In this document: one piece after another, positions 1 through 6,477 of the stretch
Position numbering within the stretch: position 1 is the first letter of the stretch
Layout of the letters: every line of letters begins with the position of its first letter
IMG/VR virus record: IMGVR_UViG_3300028612_002641
Source of the DNA: a virus
DNA length: 6,599 nt
Reading direction: 5' to 3' (one strand)
Position numbers and translations under genes: made by a program
Notes under the pieces: generated by a model
What the model saw: only the letters and a program-made list of their open reading frames with translations
The model's database searches: none
Told to the model about the DNA's origin: nothing

Positions 1-40
1 CAATCAGGTTGTATGGCTTCATTTCTGGCTCCTCAGCGTT

Positions 41-113
41 TGTCTAATGATGCTTGACAACCGCAAAACCCTCAATGTCTAATGCCGATATACATGTCAA
101 GTCTCATTAGACA
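41..113. promoter_or_regulatory. Operator cluster: three copies of the 9-mer TGTCTAATG (41-49 direct, 76-84 direct, 105-113 inverted)
   Basis: The 9-mer was read directly at all three positions. 75-84 (ATGTCTAATG) and 105-114 (CATTAGACAT) form a perfect 10-bp inverted repeat. 41-59 and 95-113 form a 17/19 inverted repeat. The cluster lies between the leftward repressor gene and the rightward operon, and copy 2 overlaps the candidate -10 box. Confidence 0.6.
54..83 (+). promoter_or_regulatory. Candidate sigma70-type rightward early promoter
   Basis: A perfect TTGACA at 54-59 is followed by an 18-nt spacer and TCTAAT at 78-83 (5/6 to TATAAT). It sits upstream of the first + strand ORF at 152. 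Confidence 0.5.
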
Positions 114-151
114 TACGGAAGTCAACTCGACCACTTCCAAGGGGGAAGACC

Positions 152-256
152 ATGACCGAAAAGCAAATAATCCCTGCCGCGCTGCTTGCCTTCGCCATTT
201 CCGTAGTCGCTGCCGTCTACTTCGCGGCCAGCTACCTAGAGGGGTGCCCGGCATGA
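152..256 (+). CDS. 34-aa single-pass membrane peptide (MTEKQIIPAALLAFAISVVAAVYFAASYLEGCPA), first gene of the rightward operon
   Basis: The ATG at 152 follows a strong SD (AAGGGGGA, about 137-145) with a spacer of about 6 nt. The ORF has a hydrophobic core. Its TGA stop (254-256) overlaps the next ATG (253-255) as ATGA. It is too short for the ORF track. Confidence 0.5.
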   Translation: MTEKQIIPAALLAFAISVVAAVYFAASYLEGCPA

Positions 257-921
257 GCAAGCTACCCACACGCATCTGGAGAAACCGCCTTTTCTGCGCT
301 CACTGCTCCTTCGAGGTTTTCGATTCCCGCGCCTACTGCCTGAACCCACGATGTGTTGCTTTCATGCCCGAAGGGCATAACAGGCAGCAGGAAAGCGCCC
401 ATATCAAGCCCACAAGCCCTGATCTGCCGATACCGCGACCCCGTACGCATCCAGAGCCAAAACACCCCCAAAACAGCTCTCAGCGCTTTCTACGCCGTTT
501 TTCTGCGCCCTCGACCCTTTCAACCCCCAAAACCCTCTCTCGCGCCATGAAAAACCGCCTTTTAACGGCCTCTCAGCCTCTCGTACCGCTTTTTCCATGC
601 TCCGGCCCTTCAATCCGTTGCTTTTCACCATCATTTCCGTCTCTGCCTTGCCCTGCTACCTGCTCCAATCTCAACCCTAAACACCAACCCAAAATCCAAA
701 ATCTTTCTTTTCCCCTGGCCTATGTCCCTTCCCCCAAGGTGGCCGGGGTTTTTTCTTCCCCTTCATCCGCTTCTGCCTTTCGGTTCGTTCGGTGGGTGAA
801 TTTGGTAGGGGCGGTCCTTGTAACACCGCCCCTTTGTCCCATGGGTGGGACTTTTCGTACAAAAAATGATCAGGGCCACTGTTTTTCTGTCCAGTGCTTT
901 GGGGGTCCTAATGCTTATTGA
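253..921 (+). CDS. Hypothetical protein with an N-terminal CxxC...CxxxxC zinc-ribbon-like motif; the Pro/Ser-rich remainder is of doubtful coding status
   Basis: This is the same frame as track ORF 82..921. The ATG at 253 is coupled to the upstream ORF by an ATGA overlap, with GAGGGG 8 nt upstream. Residues 15-34 read C-AH-C...C-LNPR-C. Beyond about residue 55 the frame runs through a pyrimidine tract where stop codons are rare in every frame, so openness there is weak evidence for coding. Confidence 0.3.
   Translation: MSKLPTRIWRNRLFCAHCSFEVFDSRAYCLNPRCVAFMPEGHNRQQESAHIKPTSPDLPIPRPRTHPEPKHPQNSSQRFLRRFSAPSTLSTPKTLSRAMKNRLLTASQPLVPLFPCSGPSIRCFSPSFPSLPCPATCSNLNPKHQPKIQNLSFPLAYVPSPKVAGVFSSPSSASAFRFVRWVNLVGAVLVTPPLCPMGGTFRTKNDQGHCFSVQCFGGPNAY
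400..790 (+). other. C-rich, G-poor pyrimidine tract (possible intergenic/origin region or rut-like leader)
   Basis: My hand count for 421-780 gives about 146 C against about 49 G in 360 nt, and 661-720 contains only 3 G. The flanking genes show no such skew. Confidence 0.7.
808..855 (+). terminator. Two tandem hairpins, each followed by a T-run, just upstream of rep (attenuator/terminator or ssDNA origin hairpins)
   Basis: GGGGCGG (808-814) pairs with CCGCCCC (826-832) around an 11-nt loop, followed by TTT. GTCCCA (836-841) pairs with TGGGAC (846-851) around a 4-nt loop, followed by TTTT (852-855). Confidence 0.3.
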
Positions 922-1936
922 TTGGCTCACCATCCGAGTCTCTTATGACTCATTGAATGATGACGCCCTAAAGGTTGTTTTGGCCTATGGGGATCGTGTT
1001 CAACGTATCGACGCTAAAACAGGTGAACTTCGTTGGGAAACTGCTGCTTGGGATTCAATCAGATCAGATACCCACGCCATTAGTGTCAAAGCTGGTGGTT
1101 CTGAACTCTGGATACAGGGAAGTCCTGCTCGAATCATCGCCCAGGGTGATGCTGTCTTTGGCTCAGGTGCCAGCCAAGCCCTTGATATTAGTGGTTGCAT
1201 AGAACGAATGACCGCTTTCGTAGGTTCTATGCTGGGCGTTTCTCTCCCTGATCCATCCCCATGGATCGTTTCACGTGCTGATATCACTGAAAACTTACGC
1301 CTTGCAGATCATGCTCAGGTCCGCCAAGCCCTATCCATTCTTCGTGATTGTGAAGGTGGTCGTTATAGGGTCAGCCAGCAAGCAGGTGACACCGTCTACT
1401 GGGGTGGTAAATCAAAACACCGACGTGGCAAGGCATACGCTAAAGGCCCACACCTAACCCACATCATGAAAAAACCGGATTACTCCGGTTATCCCTATAC
1501 CCCAGAACAAATTTCAGATGCTCATCAATTATTACGACTAGAACTGACACTAGCCCGCGAATGGTTTTCGCGTAATGACTGGAAAACAGTGACACCGGCC
1601 CACCTTAAAAGTGAATGGGATGATTATTTCGGTCGGATGATCGGAGGTGCAGAGATGAAAACAGAAACCGATTTGAAACAGAAAGTAATGGCCGCTGCAA
1701 CAACTGAAGGTCAGGGCAGAGCTGCTATTGGATGCTGGGCACTAATTCAATCTCAAGGTTGGGAATCTGCTCGTGAGATGCAGTCCAGGACAACATGGTA
1801 CAGAAATTTAAAGATTCTCCGGGCTGCTGGTCTCGGTGATGCCGATCTTTCCCGTGGTCAGATCGTCCAGCTACGTCGTCGCGTTATGGAATGTCAAACA
1901 GTCACTAGCTGGGAACAACTAGCACGTTCTGCATAA
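911..1936 (+). CDS. Rolling-circle replication initiation protein (pII/RstA-like, Rep_trans/Phage_CRI-type)
   Basis: The track ORF is 845..1936. I prefer the ATG at 911 because it is preceded by TGGGGGT 5 nt upstream and gives an N-terminus MLIDWLT, typical of these Reps. Position 845 is GTG and 866 has no SD, and both would add a signal-peptide-like extension. The motifs LWIQGSPARIIAQGDAVFGS and KAYAKG (candidate catalytic Tyr) resemble filamentous-phage and plasmid initiators as I recall them. Confidence 0.75.
   Translation: MLIDWLTIRVSYDSLNDDALKVVLAYGDRVQRIDAKTGELRWETAAWDSIRSDTHAISVKAGGSELWIQGSPARIIAQGDAVFGSGASQALDISGCIERMTAFVGSMLGVSLPDPSPWIVSRADITENLRLADHAQVRQALSILRDCEGGRYRVSQQAGDTVYWGGKSKHRRGKAYAKGPHLTHIMKKPDYSGYPYTPEQISDAHQLLRLELTLAREWFSRNDWKTVTPAHLKSEWDDYFGRMIGGAEMKTETDLKQKVMAAATTEGQGRAAIGCWALIQSQGWESAREMQSRTTWYRNLKILRAAGLGDADLSRGQIVQLRRRVMECQTVTSWEQLARSA
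1655..1936 (+). CDS. Candidate in-frame internal translation product of rep (pX-like, 93 aa)
   Basis: A perfect GGAGG at 1643-1647 lies 7 nt upstream of the in-frame ATG at 1655. In Ff phages, gene X is produced by exactly this kind of in-frame restart inside gene II. Confidence 0.35.
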   Translation: MKTETDLKQKVMAAATTEGQGRAAIGCWALIQSQGWESAREMQSRTTWYRNLKILRAAGLGDADLSRGQIVQLRRRVMECQTVTSWEQLARSA

Positions 1937-2815: not shown

Positions 2816-4261
2816 ATGAATTACTTCACACGCCAGCTAATCCGTGCCTTGGAAAACCGGCTGTTCCGCCAGCTCGCCTACTACATCATAGCCGCGGCAA
2901 TCGCCTTGCTCGGCTTGATCGCGAACACAGCACTCGCCGCAACAGTAGAGGATCCCCAGGCGACACCGGGAACATACTGCACCCTCCCAAATGGCTGTGA
3001 AGCTTCAAGCTCAGATCCGCGTTACGATACTCAAGAAGACTTCGTAAATGGCTGGTGCGGTAACGACTTCAACCCGCCGTCAAACTCAACTGCCCATTCG
3101 TGCACCACGGTAACAGTTGACAATAGATACTACGCCGTTGGCCGCTGGTGCCGTTCGATACACACAGCAACCGGCCTTCCATTCCAGCGCTCATACTCAA
3201 CTGGCCCACTAACTGGCATCTGCGTTTTCTCCGACGAAGCGCCCACCTGCAACATCCCCGAAGGAACAGAGCAGAGACTCGAAACTTCCCTATCCCTTAC
3301 ACAGGTGTGCTTCTCTAACTGCATCTTCGATAGCCCAAAGAAACAGATTGGAGGCTACGGTGCTGACGGAAGTCTCCGATGGTTCGCAGACTACACAAGC
3401 ACAGGAGAGTACTGCGACGACCCTAACGGCGATTCATCCCGCCCATTCGACGATTTCACAGATGACGACGACTGTTACATTGGCATAAATGGCAAAAAGT
3501 ATTGTGGTGTCCCGAACAACAGCCCGTGCCCTAACTACATCATGGTGGACGGCAAAAAGTACTGCCAGACAGCCGAAGAAGGGGAAAACCCAGTCGACTC
3601 AGACGGTGACGGCTCACCTGACGGAGAAGACCCAGACCCAACAAATCCCGATACTGACGGAGACGGTGCCCCAGATGGTAACGACCCAGACCCTACAAAT
3701 CCGGATACTGACGGCGACGGCATACCAGACGGCGAAGACCCAGACAATGACAACAACGGCATTCCCGACGACGAAGAAGGCGACGGCCCCGCCTCAGAAT
3801 ACACATCAGGCACCTGCAACCCAGGCACCCAGATACAAGAGCCGCAATGCAGCTCAGAACTAGATGCCGTCCAGTGCGCGATATACCTCAATAACTGGCA
3901 CCACCGCTGTGACCAAAAACAGCAATACACAGACCTCTACGGCACGGAACAAGAAAGAGAAGAGGCCGCATTACAGGGCAACGAATACCTAGACCCAGAC
4001 AGCACGGAAAACCAACTCCCGTCACCCTCAGGTGACAATGTAGAAACCATCAACTTTTCCGATACGGTCTCATCCCTCGATGACTCCGGGTTCCTCTCCG
4101 GCTCCTGCCCAGGCGACATTTCTGTAGGAGTCCTGAGTACTTCCATCACCTTCTCATTTGGCCCCGTTTGCCAGCTTCTAGAAAACATCCGCCCGATATT
4201 TATAGCCCTCGGCTGGTTCGCTGCAGCACTGATCCTCGGCCGTTCAATGACAGGAGCTTAA
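2816..4261 (+). CDS. Adsorption / minor coat protein (pIII-like), 481 aa
   Basis: This is the largest ORF and sits in the pIII position. It has an N-terminal signal/anchor ending ...NTALA-ATVEDP, Cys-rich N-terminal domains, a central Asp-rich repeat linker and a C-terminal hydrophobic anchor (IFIALGWFAAALILG). Confidence 0.75.
   Translation: MNYFTRQLIRALENRLFRQLAYYIIAAAIALLGLIANTALAATVEDPQATPGTYCTLPNGCEASSSDPRYDTQEDFVNGWCGNDFNPPSNSTAHSCTTVTVDNRYYAVGRWCRSIHTATGLPFQRSYSTGPLTGICVFSDEAPTCNIPEGTEQRLETSLSLTQVCFSNCIFDSPKKQIGGYGADGSLRWFADYTSTGEYCDDPNGDSSRPFDDFTDDDDCYIGINGKKYCGVPNNSPCPNYIMVDGKKYCQTAEEGENPVDSDGDGSPDGEDPDPTNPDTDGDGAPDGNDPDPTNPDTDGDGIPDGEDPDNDNNGIPDDEEGDGPASEYTSGTCNPGTQIQEPQCSSELDAVQCAIYLNNWHHRCDQKQQYTDLYGTEQEREEAALQGNEYLDPDSTENQLPSPSGDNVETINFSDTVSSLDDSGFLSGSCPGDISVGVLSTSITFSFGPVCQLLENIRPIFIALGWFAAALILGRSMTGA
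3596..3787 (+). repeat. In-frame Asp-rich repeats (DPDPTNPDTDGDGxPDGx), thrombospondin-type-3-like calcium-binding motif
   Basis: Two near-identical 54-nt (18-aa) units lie at 3629-3682 and 3683-3736, flanked by degenerate copies (DSDGDGSPDGE, DPDNDNNGIPDDEEGDG). Confidence 0.8.
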
Positions 4262-4264
4262 AAA

Positions 4265-4567
4265 ATGCCACTACCCGTAATAGCAGGCATAGGCGCTTTC
4301 ATCTTCGGTAGAACACTGCTATCCGTCGCCGCAAGAATCTTTATCTCATTAGGCATTGGTTTCACCGTATTTCAGGGGGTAAACCTCGGCTTTTCTGCAC
4401 TCACAGACCTTGTTTACCAGTCATTTAACGGGCTTCCATCAACGATACTTTCCCTGATAGGCCTCTCTGGCATCGACGTCTTCATATCCCTTGTTTTGTC
4501 TGCCTACGCCGCTGCACTAACGCTGAAAGGCATCAGCGGCACAATCAAACAAATGAGGTTTAAATAA
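4265..4567 (+). CDS. pVI-like minor coat / membrane protein, 100 aa
   Basis: AGGAG at 4252-4256 lies 8 nt upstream of the ATG. The product is strongly hydrophobic with multiple TM segments. It lies between the pIII-like and pI-like genes, and its stop overlaps the next start as TAATG (4565-4569). Confidence 0.65.
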   Translation: MPLPVIAGIGAFIFGRTLLSVAARIFISLGIGFTVFQGVNLGFSALTDLVYQSFNGLPSTILSLIGLSGIDVFISLVLSAYAAALTLKGISGTIKQMRFK

Positions 4568-5688
4568 TGTTCTGGATAGTCACCGGCGCCCCGGGAAGCT
4601 CAAAAACCCTGAACATGATTTCAATGTTCAAAACCGTGAAAGACCGCCCGATATACTTCCACGGCATCGAGCTAACAGAGGAGGGCAGACGCACCCTTAA
4701 CTGGGTAGAACTAAACAAAGACCAGGCCTACGAGTGGCATGAACACGTGCCCCACGGAGGCATATTCATCCTTGACGAAGCACAAAAAATCTTCCCCGTT
4801 AAATCGTCATCATCCCCAGTTCCCCCCGGCTTGACAGAGCTCGAAACACACCGCAAATCCGGACGAGACGTATGGTTCCTCTCACAGCACCCAATGCTCC
4901 TCCACTCCCACGCCCGGAAAATCTGCAACCAGCACTACCACTACTCACGGCCCTTCAACACTGGCAAACCGTACCGCTATCACTCGGGGTCAGGCTTCGT
5001 CGATCCCAACGACAGAAAGGCCCTTAGATTTGAGTGCGTAAAAACGAAAGTCCCCCTGGACACATCAAGCTACCCGCTTTATGTATCGGCTGAAGTCCAC
5101 ACCCACGAAAAGAAAATGCCGGGGAAAATCAAACTGCTCTACATGCTCCCCATAATGGCAGTTCTTTTCGGCTACCTCGGCTTCAAATTCCTCTCCCCCT
5201 CAGACGAAGAACAGACCGACCGAGCCGCGTCAACCGCTGCTACACAGCGAGAAAAACCAGATGGAGGCTTTTTCGCAGTCCCCTCTATTGCACAGCGCGA
5301 ACAGATCTCATGGGCAGAATCTCTACGCCCTGAAATCAACGGCATCCCATACACAGCGCCGCTATACCGCGACGAAGCTACCAAGGTCTCTTCAGTCCCC
5401 CGCATAGCCGCCTGTGTCGCCTCTAAGAAGCGTTGCCAGTGTTTCACCCAGCAGGCCACCCCGATCGCCGGCATCAGCGATCAGGTGTGCCGGCATAACG
5501 TCAAAAATGGCCATTTCGACCACATGTACCCGGAGAACAGAGGAGAAAGAGAGAAGGGCAGGTCCTCGAAAATTCAGGATCATGAAGACCGTCCAGACAC
5601 CCCAGAAACACCCCAAAGCACATCTCTGGCCCGCCTCCAGCGTGCTATCAAAATCACCCAGGAAACCCGGTTTTCCGCCCTCGACTAA
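4567..5688 (+). CDS. Assembly ATPase, pI / Zot (zonular occludens toxin-like) family, 373 aa
   Basis: An N-terminal P-loop GAPGSSKT (residues 7-14) is followed by a Walker B-like GGIFILDEAQ. A single TM helix (LLYMLPIMAVLFGYLGFKFL, about residues 190-209) precedes a C-terminal Cys-containing periplasmic domain. The position after pVI is canonical. Confidence 0.9.
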   Translation: MFWIVTGAPGSSKTLNMISMFKTVKDRPIYFHGIELTEEGRRTLNWVELNKDQAYEWHEHVPHGGIFILDEAQKIFPVKSSSSPVPPGLTELETHRKSGRDVWFLSQHPMLLHSHARKICNQHYHYSRPFNTGKPYRYHSGSGFVDPNDRKALRFECVKTKVPLDTSSYPLYVSAEVHTHEKKMPGKIKLLYMLPIMAVLFGYLGFKFLSPSDEEQTDRAASTAATQREKPDGGFFAVPSIAQREQISWAESLRPEINGIPYTAPLYRDEATKVSSVPRIAACVASKKRCQCFTQQATPIAGISDQVCRHNVKNGHFDHMYPENRGEREKGRSSKIQDHEDRPDTPETPQSTSLARLQRAIKITQETRFSALD

Positions 5689-5740
5689 ACACAACATCTA
5701 GTGCACCTGGTAGCGAGGATCTGCACAAGATGTTGTGTTT
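5687..5740. terminator. Long imperfect hairpin between convergent genes (bidirectional terminator and/or packaging-signal candidate)
   Basis: AAACACAACATCT (5687-5699) pairs with AGATGTTGTGTTT (5728-5740), 13 bp. After one A/A mismatch, GTGCA (5701-5705) pairs with TGCAC (5722-5726). CCT (5706-5708) with AGG (5716-5718) is also possible. The arms abut the stop codons of both convergent genes, and T-runs follow the stem on both strands. Confidence 0.45.
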
Positions 5741-6066
5741 TAGAAATCCATCACGAACTGTGCCGGTTTAGCCCTGAGTCGTTCCAGCTCCCGGCGCAGT
5801 TGCCTCACCGCCCACAAGCTCTTGACGTCTTCCGCCCGATACTCGTTGCCGTCTGGATCTATCAGCAGCGGGCCATCTACGCGCCATCCTTTCCAGCTTT
5901 CGTGATTCGTAGGCAAACGGCCAGCCCTGTGCAGGCTGACCAGTTGAGTTATGTGTGGGGGTGCAATGCCGGTTCTGAGGTATCGACGTATTGTCGATGG
6001 GTGACGGTAGGTGATCCGGGAGAGTTCGTTAACTGAGAGGCCGAAAGCAACATCGTTGAAGGTCAT
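5740..6066 (-). CDS. 108-aa HTH DNA-binding phage regulatory protein (possibly DUF3653-like)
   Basis: The ORF is in the track. An N-terminal HTH-like segment (LSVNELSRITYRHPSTIRRYLRTG) is followed by a W-x-GW-x-x-DG-x-L-x-x-P-DG pattern. It lies 18 nt downstream of the repressor gene on the same strand. No clear SD is present. Confidence 0.6.
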   Translation of the reverse strand: MTFNDVAFGLSVNELSRITYRHPSTIRRYLRTGIAPPHITQLVSLHRAGRLPTNHESWKGWRVDGPLLIDPDGNEYRAEDVKSLWAVRQLRRELERLRAKPAQFVMDF

Positions 6067-6084
6067 TCACACATCACAGCAAGC

Positions 6085-6477
6085 CTAAAACCCCAATCTT
6101 GCCCGCTGCCGACGCAAACCGTCTATTGAACATAATATACAGAGTTTATCCGCTACCTCTGACCAATAGGGGATAGCTATTAAACCAAAAACCGTTGCAG
6201 CAGAGTGCGTTACCGCTTGAAATCGGCGTTTCCAAACCTGCAAGCCCTCCTCGTCGTGCGAGCGTTCTGCTTGCGCGATCTTGCAGATAGCAACAGCCTC
6301 CGCCGGGTCCATCCCGATCACCTCAGCAATCGTCCAGGCGTTTTCAACACTGAGGCTCCCGCCGTGCTTAACCGCCGAAATAGCACCCCTTGTAAGCCCT
6401 AGCTCCTTCGCTACTGCGTTGTCGCTCCTAAGCCCTTTTTTCTGCTTGTACTGCTCAATCAGGTTGTATGGCTTCAT
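6085..6477 (-). CDS. XRE/Cro-CI-type HTH repressor, 130 aa
   Basis: The ATG at 6477-6475 follows GAGGAG (complement of 6484-6489) with a 6-nt spacer. The HTH reads NAVAKELGLTRGAISAVKHGG. The gene is divergent from the structural operon and adjacent to the repeated operator 9-mers. Confidence 0.8.
   Translation of the reverse strand: MKPYNLIEQYKQKKGLRSDNAVAKELGLTRGAISAVKHGGSLSVENAWTIAEVIGMDPAEAVAICKIAQAERSHDEEGLQVWKRRFQAVTHSAATVFGLIAIPYWSEVADKLCILCSIDGLRRQRARLGF
6125..6156 (-). other. dif-like candidate XerCD recombination site (attP) inside the repressor 3' end
   Basis: The minus strand reads GTAGCGGATAA-ACTC-TGTATA-TTATGTTCAAT. TGTATATTATGTTCAAT matches the E. coli dif central region plus XerD arm (TGTATA TTATGTTAAAT) at 16/17. 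The 11 nt immediately adjacent do not resemble the XerC arm. A XerC-arm-like 11-mer (8/11 to GGTGCGCATAA) lies 4 nt further out. Confidence 0.6.

Follow-up and report, generated by a model that had tools for sequence, protein, structure and literature searches.

A C-rich tract upstream of rep in a dif-integrating Thalassospira inovirus is probably the disordered coding tail of an accessory protein and lies just 5' of a candidate (+) strand origin

The window (the whole stretch of DNA analysed, 6,599 nt) is the circular genome of an inovirus of Thalassospira that integrates at dif. A dif-like attP is located at 6125-6152, and the prophage junctions sit at ATTTAACATAATATACA. The genome encodes no integrase and carries a Zot-like pI as well as a divergent HTH repressor gene (6085-6477). 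These features are shared with XerCD/dif inoviruses of the CTXphi / VGJphi type, from which the window differs in its gene content upstream of rep. The probable early promoter (Table 1), which the consensus promoter scan did not list, is flanked by inverted-repeat operators (37-59 / 95-117) and would transcribe a small hydrophobic ORF, ORF 253-921, and rep. Within the C-rich tract of ORF 253-921, the same scan found no sigma-70 promoter on the + strand. The rep gene was assigned by profile matches to Pfam PF05144 (E = 1.3e-19, alignment from residue 3) and PHROG 702 (E = 1.6e-41), and the nearest Rep among GenBank phages in a protein search shows 24% identity. No GenBank phage matched the window at the DNA level, no relatives of the C-rich tract were found among GenBank phages or plasmids, and a literature search on Thalassospira filamentous phages returned nothing relevant.

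Table 1. Features of the early region, from the probable promoter to rep
Feature	Coordinates	Strand	Description
Early promoter, probable	54..83	+	TTGACA, 18 nt, TCTAAT; read from the sequence
Small hydrophobic ORF, 34 aa	152..256	+	ATGA overlap between its stop and the next start codon
ORF, 222 aa	253..921	+	Holds the entire C-rich tract, reads through the hairpins, stops 8 nt inside rep
Hairpin A	364..378	+	ATGCCC-GAA-GGGCAT; at the boundary of variable head and conserved tail; encodes M-P-E-G-H
Block C	478..500	+	Encodes SQRFLRRF; sole AlphaFold2-predicted helix of the tail
Block D	541..573	+	Encodes RAMKN; last conserved block before the indel hot spot
Lineage-specific in-frame segment	574..706	+	Net 132 nt, 44 codons; A27 C53 G13 T40
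Block E	707..745	+	Encodes FP(P/L)AYVPSPKV; conserved, 3' of the hot spot
HP1	807..833	+	9-bp stem 807-815 / 825-833; 9-nt loop CCTTGTAAC 816-824
HP2	836..851	+	6-bp stem, 4-nt loop
Third small hairpin and rep Shine-Dalgarno	877..905	+	Hairpin CACTG...CAGTG 877-896; GGGGG 901-905
rep	911..1936	+	Phage_CRI / gene II-type rolling-circle initiator; profile matches

The tract attracts attention through its composition. Positions 421-780 contain A66 C146 G49 T99 (C:G of 3:1 over 360 nt), and the line 661-720 holds 3 G; the C and G counts and the 3-G line given in an earlier, sequence-only reading of this DNA were exact. With C at 30.4% and G at 22.7% genome-wide, the C excess has a binomial p of 2.6e-5 and the G deficit one of 9.6e-6. 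In 421-780 the (C-G)/(C+G) skew is 0.50, compared with a mean of 0.127 (sd 0.10, maximum 0.30) in 95 other 360-nt windows, corresponding to z = 3.6. The 200 nt at 501-700 have a minimum free energy of -15.0 kcal/mol (genome mean -51.1, sd 10.8), the weakest window in the genome. Nowhere else is the genome as skewed or as poor in structure as in 421-780, in line with the earlier remark that no other part looks like it. It had also been noted that the tract lacks the hairpin richness of the Ff intergenic region, which agrees with RNA 400-800 folding no better than its shuffles (z = 0.22); neither strand matched an Rfam family at E <= 1. By codon position, C makes up 39% (position 1), 41% (position 2), and 34% (position 3) of the tract. 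The lack of any excess at position 3 is the pattern that Pro, Ser, Thr, and Leu codons would produce.

Frame 1 stays free of stops over 58-921, and its TGA at 919-921 overlaps the rep start (ATG at 911), as first described. The scarcity of stop triplets in 420-840, put at about eight over three frames by the same reading, was also borne out, with 5 and 2 stops in frames 2 and 3. A GAGGGG Shine-Dalgarno lies 8 nt before the ATG at 253, and relatives keep both this element and the ATGA junction with the upstream ORF. Among 15 non-redundant relatives, frame +1 contains no stop in 15/15 and each of the other five frames contains 2-8, in a set where several members were located via predicted proteins, which favours intact frames and may therefore introduce an ascertainment bias. 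The composition by itself also promotes open frames: in L021 and L023, frame +3 is likewise open over 150-162 codons. Scans of genome contigs with 17-mers gave mostly chance matches and only two real loci, L072 and L101 (both Thalassospira), and in a 20-mer scan of metagenomes four of 17 loci were real.

Length variation respects the same frame. All eight length differences in landmark spacing (hairpin A to HP1) are divisible by 3, among them +36, +132, +165, +9, +12, +105, and -36 nt, and the distance from the hairpin A ATG to rep+15 is 409, 421, 457, 562, 679, or 832 nt, each equal to 1 modulo 3. Indel phase had been proposed as a check of the non-coding interpretation, and it goes against that interpretation. 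Over the 18 loci with both landmarks, hairpin A and block D are 180 nt apart in 17 (183 nt in the diverged first copy of L173), while the 117 nt between hairpin A and block C are fixed in all but one locus. Furthermore, the same tail is joined in frame, at an invariant M38, to no fewer than four unrelated N-terminal modules, and in the relatives that carry it the tail ORF ends at, or a few nucleotides from, the rep start. The lone phase exception is L101, whose hairpins are duplicated over 56 nt so that the ORF is cut short before rep; if this copy is viable, read-through to rep is not obligatory.

Selection at the codon level is weak among close relatives. Here, frame-1 dN/dS is 0.64-0.83, about the same as in frame 3, and that of rep is 0.05. 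Over a 64-codon core compared in eight more distant pairs, frame 1 gave 0.55-0.87 and the other two frames 0.75-1.75, with frame 1 lowest in six of the eight, tied in one, and beaten in one. The dN/dS check, also suggested earlier, leans towards coding in the distant pairs and is equivocal among the close ones. Variable columns are distributed almost evenly over codon positions 1, 2, and 3 (49, 47, and 62 per 100), third positions being more variable than the first two (62% vs 48% of columns). Synonymous variation is seen at 39% of the codons with an invariant amino acid in the tract ORF as opposed to 93% in rep, which suggests that conservation acts partly on nucleotides or, alternatively, that recombination was recent. 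An overlapping or antisense gene was rejected as the source of this constraint after frame and start-codon checks: none of the other frames stays open throughout the relatives, and a start codon is lacking from the longest antisense stretch.

In distant homologues, on the other hand, motifs such as SQRFLxRF and PRPR are kept via synonymous changes. SQRFL(R/H)RF, for example, is written TCT CAG CGC TTT CTA CGC CGT TTT in the window and TCC CAA CGG TTC CTC CAC CGT TTC in L180. The corresponding block C is variable at 1 of 23 bases in 15 close relatives, and distant homologues keep its peptide with six synonymous changes. AlphaFold2 assigns block C a pLDDT of 65-76 and places the helix at residues 75-83.

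The extreme composition is largely due to the segment at 574-706. With a C:G of 4:1 it forms the most C-rich and least structured core of the tract, and among the loci for which DNA was available it is present only in L021/L022, L023, and L024. It is absent from L001, L004, L005, L007, L008, and L009 and from most protein homologues. The skew of the tract is 0.14-0.26 in 12 relatives without the segment and 0.35-0.39 in the window lineage, where the segment's flanks have also lost G relative to other relatives.

The predicted protein combines a zinc-ribbon-like head (residues 1-37, CxxC...CxxxxC) with a tail rich in Pro, Ser, and Arg, for which AlphaFold2 predicts disorder. The mean pLDDT is 48.8, which, taken together with the close-relative dN/dS, agrees with the original impression of an atypical, low-complexity product. 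Pfam, PHROGs, NCBIfam, and PDB sequences yielded nothing significant for ORF 253-921, the best sub-threshold matches being zinc-ribbon ribosomal proteins at E ~0.4. Disordered tails can carry short linear motifs, such as the QL[SD]LF peptides that bind the beta-clamp. The tail of ORF 253-921 resembles such tails in being Pro/Ser-rich, in having in-frame indels at one hot spot and short motifs among fast-evolving spacers, and in its low AlphaFold2 confidence. Distant homologues have ELQGDLF or ELQLDLF at the hot spot; the ORF of the window lacks the ELQGDLF motif.

The same DNA carries elements that appear to act as nucleic acid. Compensatory changes preserve the 6-bp stem of hairpin A in all relatives (ATGGCC...GGCCAT in some of them, ATCGCC...GGCGAT in L010). 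They include a synonymous Gly third base as well as amino-acid changes and mark hairpin A, as judged from these sequences, as an element maintained at the nucleic-acid level. Two hairpins had been reported within 808-855, towards the 3' end of the ORF, and two were indeed found at 807-851. DNA 790-915 folds with z = -2.7, and BLAST identity over the hairpin region is 91-96% even where Rep identity is only 48-65%. The stem of HP1 covaries and GTAACAC is invariant, while HP2 shows compensatory changes in five of six pairs. For HP1 and HP2 together, 96.9% of cells pair, eight of the 15 pairs are compensatory, and 0/500 shuffles reach the observed score.

These properties are most likely those of an Ff-type (+) strand origin core that is recognized by the Phage_CRI Rep encoded downstream. 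The M13 core is nicked by gIIp in the loop of its first hairpin (D), and the gIIp footprint extends over the second (PMC5405960). By analogy, HP1 is probably the nick-site hairpin and HP2 probably the Rep-binding part of the core. The Rep proteins belong to the same family (Phage_CRI), and in both systems adjacent hairpins precede rep, with a stem of 8-9 bp and a loop of 9-11 nt followed by a second short hairpin. The two systems differ in loop sequence (yCyTGTAAC as against GTTCTTTAATA in M13) and in position. The window hairpins are embedded in an ORF, 60-104 nt from the rep start, whereas those of M13 belong to a non-coding region of 508 nt, where ~225 nt separate the nick site from gene II. 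On their 5' side the window hairpins are preceded by unstructured coding sequence, in contrast to the packaging-signal and (-) origin hairpins of Ff. The sequence-only reading had taken the window hairpins for attenuators with T-runs, and HP2 followed by TTTTCG is indeed flagged as terminator-like in the window. The T-run is not conserved, however, since relatives continue with CTCTCC, TTCCAC, TCAGCC, GGAGTC, TAACCA, or AAAACT, and, as in the M13 origin core, an invariant loop is enclosed by covarying stems. The proposal that the C-rich tract itself is the origin is not sustained either, as the origin-like element lies 3' of it.

Taken together, the observations are best explained, with a probability that we put at about 0.6, by the C-rich tract being coding sequence, namely the disordered, Pro/Ser-rich C-terminal part of a 222-aa accessory protein, and by the hairpins forming the (+) origin core. 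The protein would be encoded between the immunity/early-promoter module and rep in marine, dif-integrating inoviruses of Thalassospira and would consist of a small interchangeable N-terminal module and a conserved motif tail (MPEGHNRQQE, LPxPRPR, SQRFLRRF, RAMKN, FPPAYVPSPKV), with freely evolving spacers between the motifs. Its unusual composition would stem mostly from the 44-codon segment at the tail hot spot, which in other relatives is occupied by unrelated segments or by none, and the same DNA would carry hairpin A and the hairpin pair. Because the ORF reads through the hairpins and stops 8 nt inside rep, ribosomes are probably passed to rep by translational coupling. Composition, maintained frame, indel phase, lineage-specific segment, hairpin covariation, motif conservation through synonymous change, and predicted disorder are observed, whereas translation of the ORF, origin function of the hairpins, coupling to rep, and the role of the protein are inferred.

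A comparable double use of bases is found in phiX174, whose rolling-circle origin lies within gene A, the initiator gene itself. There, as proposed here, an origin is placed in translated sequence and the same bases serve as codons and cis element, which matches the synonymous-site constraint in the tract ORF. In the window, by contrast, the candidate origin occupies the 3' end of the gene that precedes the initiator gene.

Other explanations of the tract draw on parts of the same evidence. It is unlikely, although conceivable, that the frame is translated while the peptide is irrelevant, and that ribosome passage through 364-910 is what is selected. Such passage would cover the C-rich mRNA, melt the hairpins in the transcript, and deliver ribosomes to rep by termination-reinitiation, nucleotide conservation then coming from cis-acting DNA elements. 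This would account for frame and indel phase being strictly kept despite a close-relative dN/dS near 1 and for the unusually conserved synonymous sites. In L012/13 and L016-L019, moreover, unrelated upstream ORFs cross the hairpins in the same frame and terminate where rep begins, as do short dedicated ORFs in L002/L003, and L003 has a GGGGGAGG Shine-Dalgarno for its ~37-codon leader ORF. In L015 and L020, however, no ORF start is evident from which the hairpins would be read, the common frame over the hairpins is in part a consequence of their conserved sequence, and the tail motifs are kept by distant homologues in other prophage contexts for which no downstream Phage_CRI rep was called in the DNA retrieved. 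A role of 400-806 as the intergenic equivalent (a (-) origin, packaging signal, or origin enhancer), with the frame as a by-product of C-richness, is quite unlikely. The stop-free frame in all relatives, the in-phase length differences, the heads fused in frame, and the peptide motifs maintained through synonymous change weigh against it and against the non-coding leader proposed earlier. In addition, most relatives do without the 133 nt that are richest in C, and the tract shows no excess structure, unlike the Ff packaging signal and (-) origin. What such a role would explain are the near-invariant nucleotide blocks among variable spacers, the preservation of hairpin A by compensation even at amino-acid cost, the nearly fixed spacing of blocks C and D from hairpin A, the constrained synonymous sites, and the position of the tract, since the (-) origin of Ff lies just 5' of the (+) origin hairpins (PMC5405960).

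The rut-like character of the tract, already pointed out in the sequence-only reading, is real in terms of composition: the roughly 80 nt or more of unstructured RNA, rich in C and poor in G, that a rut site calls for are present (C:G of 3:1 over 360 nt and 4:1 in 574-706) in the least structured part of the genome, upstream of rep on the same transcript, and the flanks of the segment are G-depleted in the window lineage. In this lineage, ~450-780 might allow Rho to terminate before rep when translation of ORF 253-921 falters, with the hairpins at 807-851 as pause sites, and Ff provides a precedent in the rho-dependent terminator of the intergenic region preceding gene II (PMC4276942). The likeness to this terminator consists in the rut-like composition and the lack of structure; the Ff signal, on the other hand, lies in untranslated RNA after gene IV, whereas the tract is inside a maintained ORF and its strong form is absent from most relatives. 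We consider such a sensor very unlikely, because ribosomes would mask a rut site in a maintained and presumably translated frame, the strong skew is limited to four known loci (0.14-0.26 in relatives), and the C enrichment is no weaker at codon positions 1 and 2 than at position 3. As the frame is kept, the skew is lineage-specific with its most C-rich 133 nt missing from most relatives, and the hairpins are origin-like, neither a rut site nor attenuators are supported as conserved functions. Composition, unstructured RNA, open frame, and hairpins of the sequence-only reading stand, and its non-coding leader, attenuators, tract origin, and, as a conserved function, rut site are not supported. 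Both views could be joined in a dual use, in which a disordered-protein gene holds the origin and hairpin A in its codons and the C-rich insert forms a Rho-dependent checkpoint of this lineage. This is highly improbable, but if it were true, rep would be transcribed only while the upstream ORF is translated, and replication would be tied to the state of translation in the host.

For the most part the finding is ordinary, and it leaves the current understanding of filamentous phages unchanged. It illustrates how a conspicuous bias in the base composition of a small phage genome can have an ordinary basis, here probably disordered coding sequence enlarged by a lineage-specific segment rather than a special RNA signal, and it offers an example of coding sequence that also bears selected nucleic-acid hairpins. 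By-products are a candidate (+) origin (807-851) and a dif-like attP (6125-6152) for uncultivated Thalassospira inoviruses, together with an uncharacterized early-protein family with conserved short motifs.

With regard to the source of the 133-nt segment, local alignment to its flanks and to the rest of the genome on both strands was no better than for shuffles, and no copies elsewhere were found in IMG/VR (20-mer scan), plasmids, or phages. A MITE-like mobile insertion was rejected on these grounds. The first ~30 nt of the segment resemble the hot-spot segment of L006, a similarity that 3 of 300 shuffles score as well.

The C-rich, G-poor tract upstream of rep (421-780) is best regarded as mostly ordinary, a low-complexity coding segment that belongs to an accessory gene and adjoins a probable Ff-like origin. 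The sequence-only reading, which had proposed a non-coding leader with a Rho utilisation (rut) site, attenuator hairpins, or an origin, is only partly supported. Its base counts proved exact and its compositional anomaly was confirmed: 421-780 contains 146 C against 49 G, and one 60-nt line has 3 G. With a skew of 0.50, this stretch exceeds the other 360-nt windows of the genome by 3.6 sd, and the tract is the least structured genome part, with an MFE of -15.0 kcal/mol for 501-700 against a mean of -51.1 (sd 10.8) for 200-nt windows; the RNA of 400-800 folds no better than shuffles. Frame 1 is stop-free over 58-921 and terminates only after rep has begun (911), although C-rich composition by itself reduces the stop-codon frequency. 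Two tract motifs of the ACCCCCAAAAC type (464-475 and 523-536) show 86-92% complementarity to 893-906 (TGCTTTGGGGGT), the region of the rep Shine-Dalgarno sequence, and could on this basis engage in long-range anti-SD pairing; no conservation of these motifs was apparent in relatives in an alignment judged by eye.

Features of the phage genome (window coordinates)
Feature	Position	Remarks
ORF containing the tract	253-921	222 aa; GAGGGG Shine-Dalgarno; ATGA overlap with preceding small ORF
Hairpin A	364-378	ATGCCC-GAA-GGGCAT, 15 nt, inside coding sequence
rep	911-1936	Phage_CRI replication initiator
ssDNA-binding protein gene	2005-2313	gene V-type
Small coat-like ORFs		between ssDNA-binding and pIII-like genes, in gene order
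pIII-like gene	2816-4261	
pVI-like gene	4265-4567	
Zot/pI gene	4567-5688	
DUF3653 gene and HTH repressor		strand opposite to the other listed genes
dif-like attP	6125-6152	ATTGAACATAA-TATACA-GAGTTTATCCG

Several lines of sequence evidence indicate that the reading frame of ORF 253-921 is under selection. Its Shine-Dalgarno sequence and ATGA overlap are both kept in relatives, and frame +1 contains no stops in 15 of 15 non-redundant relatives (other frames, 2-8 each), a count that may be biased towards intact frames, several relatives having been located through predicted proteins. Indel phase, proposed earlier as a check on coding, favours a maintained frame: the spacing between nucleotide landmarks differs in eight cases, each time by a multiple of 3. 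At least four unrelated N-terminal modules (three zinc-ribbon and two non-ribbon types) are joined in frame to one common tail at an invariant Met. Furthermore, the motifs MP.GH, PRPR, SQRFL.RF, and PRAM(K/N)N are conserved in distant homologues despite synonymous codon change; two of these homologues lie in early regions of other prophages, where the DNA retrieved had no Phage_CRI rep call further downstream.

The dN/dS check gave a mixed answer. Over a 64-codon core in eight pairwise comparisons, frame 1 yielded 0.55-0.87 versus 0.75-1.75 for shifted frames, but among close relatives the tail reached 0.64-0.83, compared with 0.05 for rep (rep dS about 1). Variable columns by codon position are nearly flat in the tail (49, 47, and 62 per 100) versus 37%, 22%, and 88% in rep. 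AlphaFold2 gave a mean pLDDT of 48.8 with a single short helix, at SQRFLRRF, and the product had no significant match to Pfam, PHROG, or NCBIfam families or to PDB sequences. The evidence is therefore against an ordinary globular protein gene, and we read the tail as disordered, with short motifs and free spacers. Judging from its position and motifs, the protein may be an accessory factor in replication or regulation. Synonymous variation occurs in 39% of amino-acid-invariant tail codons versus 93% in rep, a constraint for which no alternative or antisense ORF accounts.

Part of the tract is specific to a lineage. Six of the 20 relatives recovered via Rep in IMG/VR align to 363-573 and then straight on from 707; the window is therefore longer by a net 132 bases, located at about 574-706 (A27 C53 G13 T40). 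This segment is otherwise common only to the related loci L021/L022, L023, and L024, and no source for it was detectable. The skew of the tract is 0.14-0.26 without the segment versus 0.35-0.39 with it. At the same site, between the conserved blocks D (541-573, RAMKN) and E (707-745), other relatives carry unrelated segments of +36 nt (L006) and +165 nt (L171/L177), and the neighbouring interval shows length changes of +9, +12, +105, and -36 nt. Recombination is rampant here and segment types are incongruently distributed, which makes comparisons of tract and rep divergence rough. The L171 segment (~2900-3085) includes an inverted repeat that is perfect over 26 nt (GTCTCTGTTTCCCCAAACGGAGAGCG ... 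CGCTCTCCGTTTGGGGAAACAGAGAC). In L173 (2600-3431), the tail module is partially duplicated in tandem and in frame (375 nt), MPEGH...RAMKN occurring twice and the first copy having diverged. In distant homologues (proteins P0025-P0040; loci L006, L010, L180, and L181), ELQGDLF/ELQLDLF, with synonymously varying codons, occurs at the hot spot (~window 574) and resembles the beta-sliding-clamp-binding motif QL[SD]LF; neither the window nor the most common short class of relatives has it.

The hairpin pair at 807-851 (HP1, 807-833; HP2, 836-851) is clearly selected as nucleic-acid structure. BLAST identity is 91-96% where Rep identity is only 48-65%, 96.9% of cells are paired, compensatory change affects 8 of 15 pairs, the first-loop GTAACAC never varies among relatives, and none of 500 shuffles reached the observed hairpin score. 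The M13 (+) origin core has the same layout, with an 8-bp stem and 11-nt loop followed immediately by a second hairpin; in M13 the gIIp nick falls in the first loop, and the protein covers the second hairpin as well (PMC5405960). Given this layout and the same-family Rep encoded shortly 3', 807-851 is most simply read as a (+) origin core, probably nicked in loop 816-824. The L024 prophage matches window positions 1-799 and 895-1754 at 100% identity but lacks 800-894; this 95-nt deletion (junction 3718/3719, GTG microhomology at its ends) removes both hairpins, and the copy may be replication-defective. In L101 (Thalassospira xianhensis contig71, reverse-complement 5291-5402), a 56-nt tandem duplication of the HP1-HP2 unit, with a single base difference between its copies, puts the upstream ORF out of frame, the stop falling in the second TGTAAC. 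Both rearrangements fit a recombinogenic origin. A third small hairpin (877-896, CACTG...CAGTG; CACTGT...ACAGTG in relatives) lies immediately 5' of the rep Shine-Dalgarno sequence.

An origin-like element thus exists, but just 3' of the C-rich tract rather than within it, and the most C-rich part of the tract is dispensable in relatives. The proposed attenuators are not supported: the T-run after HP2, which gives the hairpin its terminator-like look in the window, is missing from most relatives. A rut site in this lineage is a minor possibility: in physical terms the tract fits, and a Rho-dependent terminator precedes gene II in Ff phages (PMC4276942), but the tract lies inside a maintained ORF, its strong skew is lineage-specific, and codon positions 1 and 2 show C enrichment equal to that of position 3.

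Hairpin A is also clearly selected as nucleic-acid structure, its perfect 6-bp stem being maintained in every relative by compensatory changes. Several relatives have ATGGCC...GGCCAT, with a Pro-to-Ala change paired with a synonymous Gly change, and L010 has ATCGCC...GGCGAT, pairing being preserved despite Met-to-Ile and His-to-Asp; loops are GAA, GCA, GTA, AAA, or TCA. It could serve complementary-strand priming, protein binding, or as an RNA element.

An early promoter near 54-83 would deliver a single message carrying the small ORF, ORF 253-921, and rep. Between the early ORFs and the repressor gene, nested inverted repeats at 37-117 (GTCTAATG / CATTAGAC), likely operators, surround this probable promoter (TTGACA-18 nt-TCTAAT). 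In tail-bearing relatives the upstream ORF reads across the hairpins and terminates a few nt at most from the rep start, as do unrelated or short dedicated upstream ORFs in several others (exceptions: L015, L020, and L101). Because upstream ORFs end at the rep start across relatives, translational coupling to rep is suggested.

The window is a filamentous phage, with a circular genome of 6599 bases as written, a 144-nt terminal redundancy included. The dif-like site, together with four prophage copies (L021, L024, L171, and L175) in which unrelated host DNA stops exactly at ATTTAACATAATATACA, indicates integration at dif through XerCD, the window being the excised circular form. No GenBank phage is similar at the DNA level, and among isolate genomes only those of Thalassospira tepidiphila and T. 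xianhensis carry the tract (protein P0006 also bears a Thalassospira name). Strong hairpins directly after zot/pI (5685-5743, ~25-bp stem, -28 kcal/mol) and between rep and the ssDNA-binding gene (1939-1982, GC-rich, -33 kcal/mol) are candidates for a packaging signal, terminator, or (-) origin. Asp-rich tandem repeats (DPDPTNPDTDGDG.PDG) at window positions ~3595-3790, in the putative adsorption protein encoded by the pIII-like gene, look like calcium-binding thrombospondin-type-3-like repeats.
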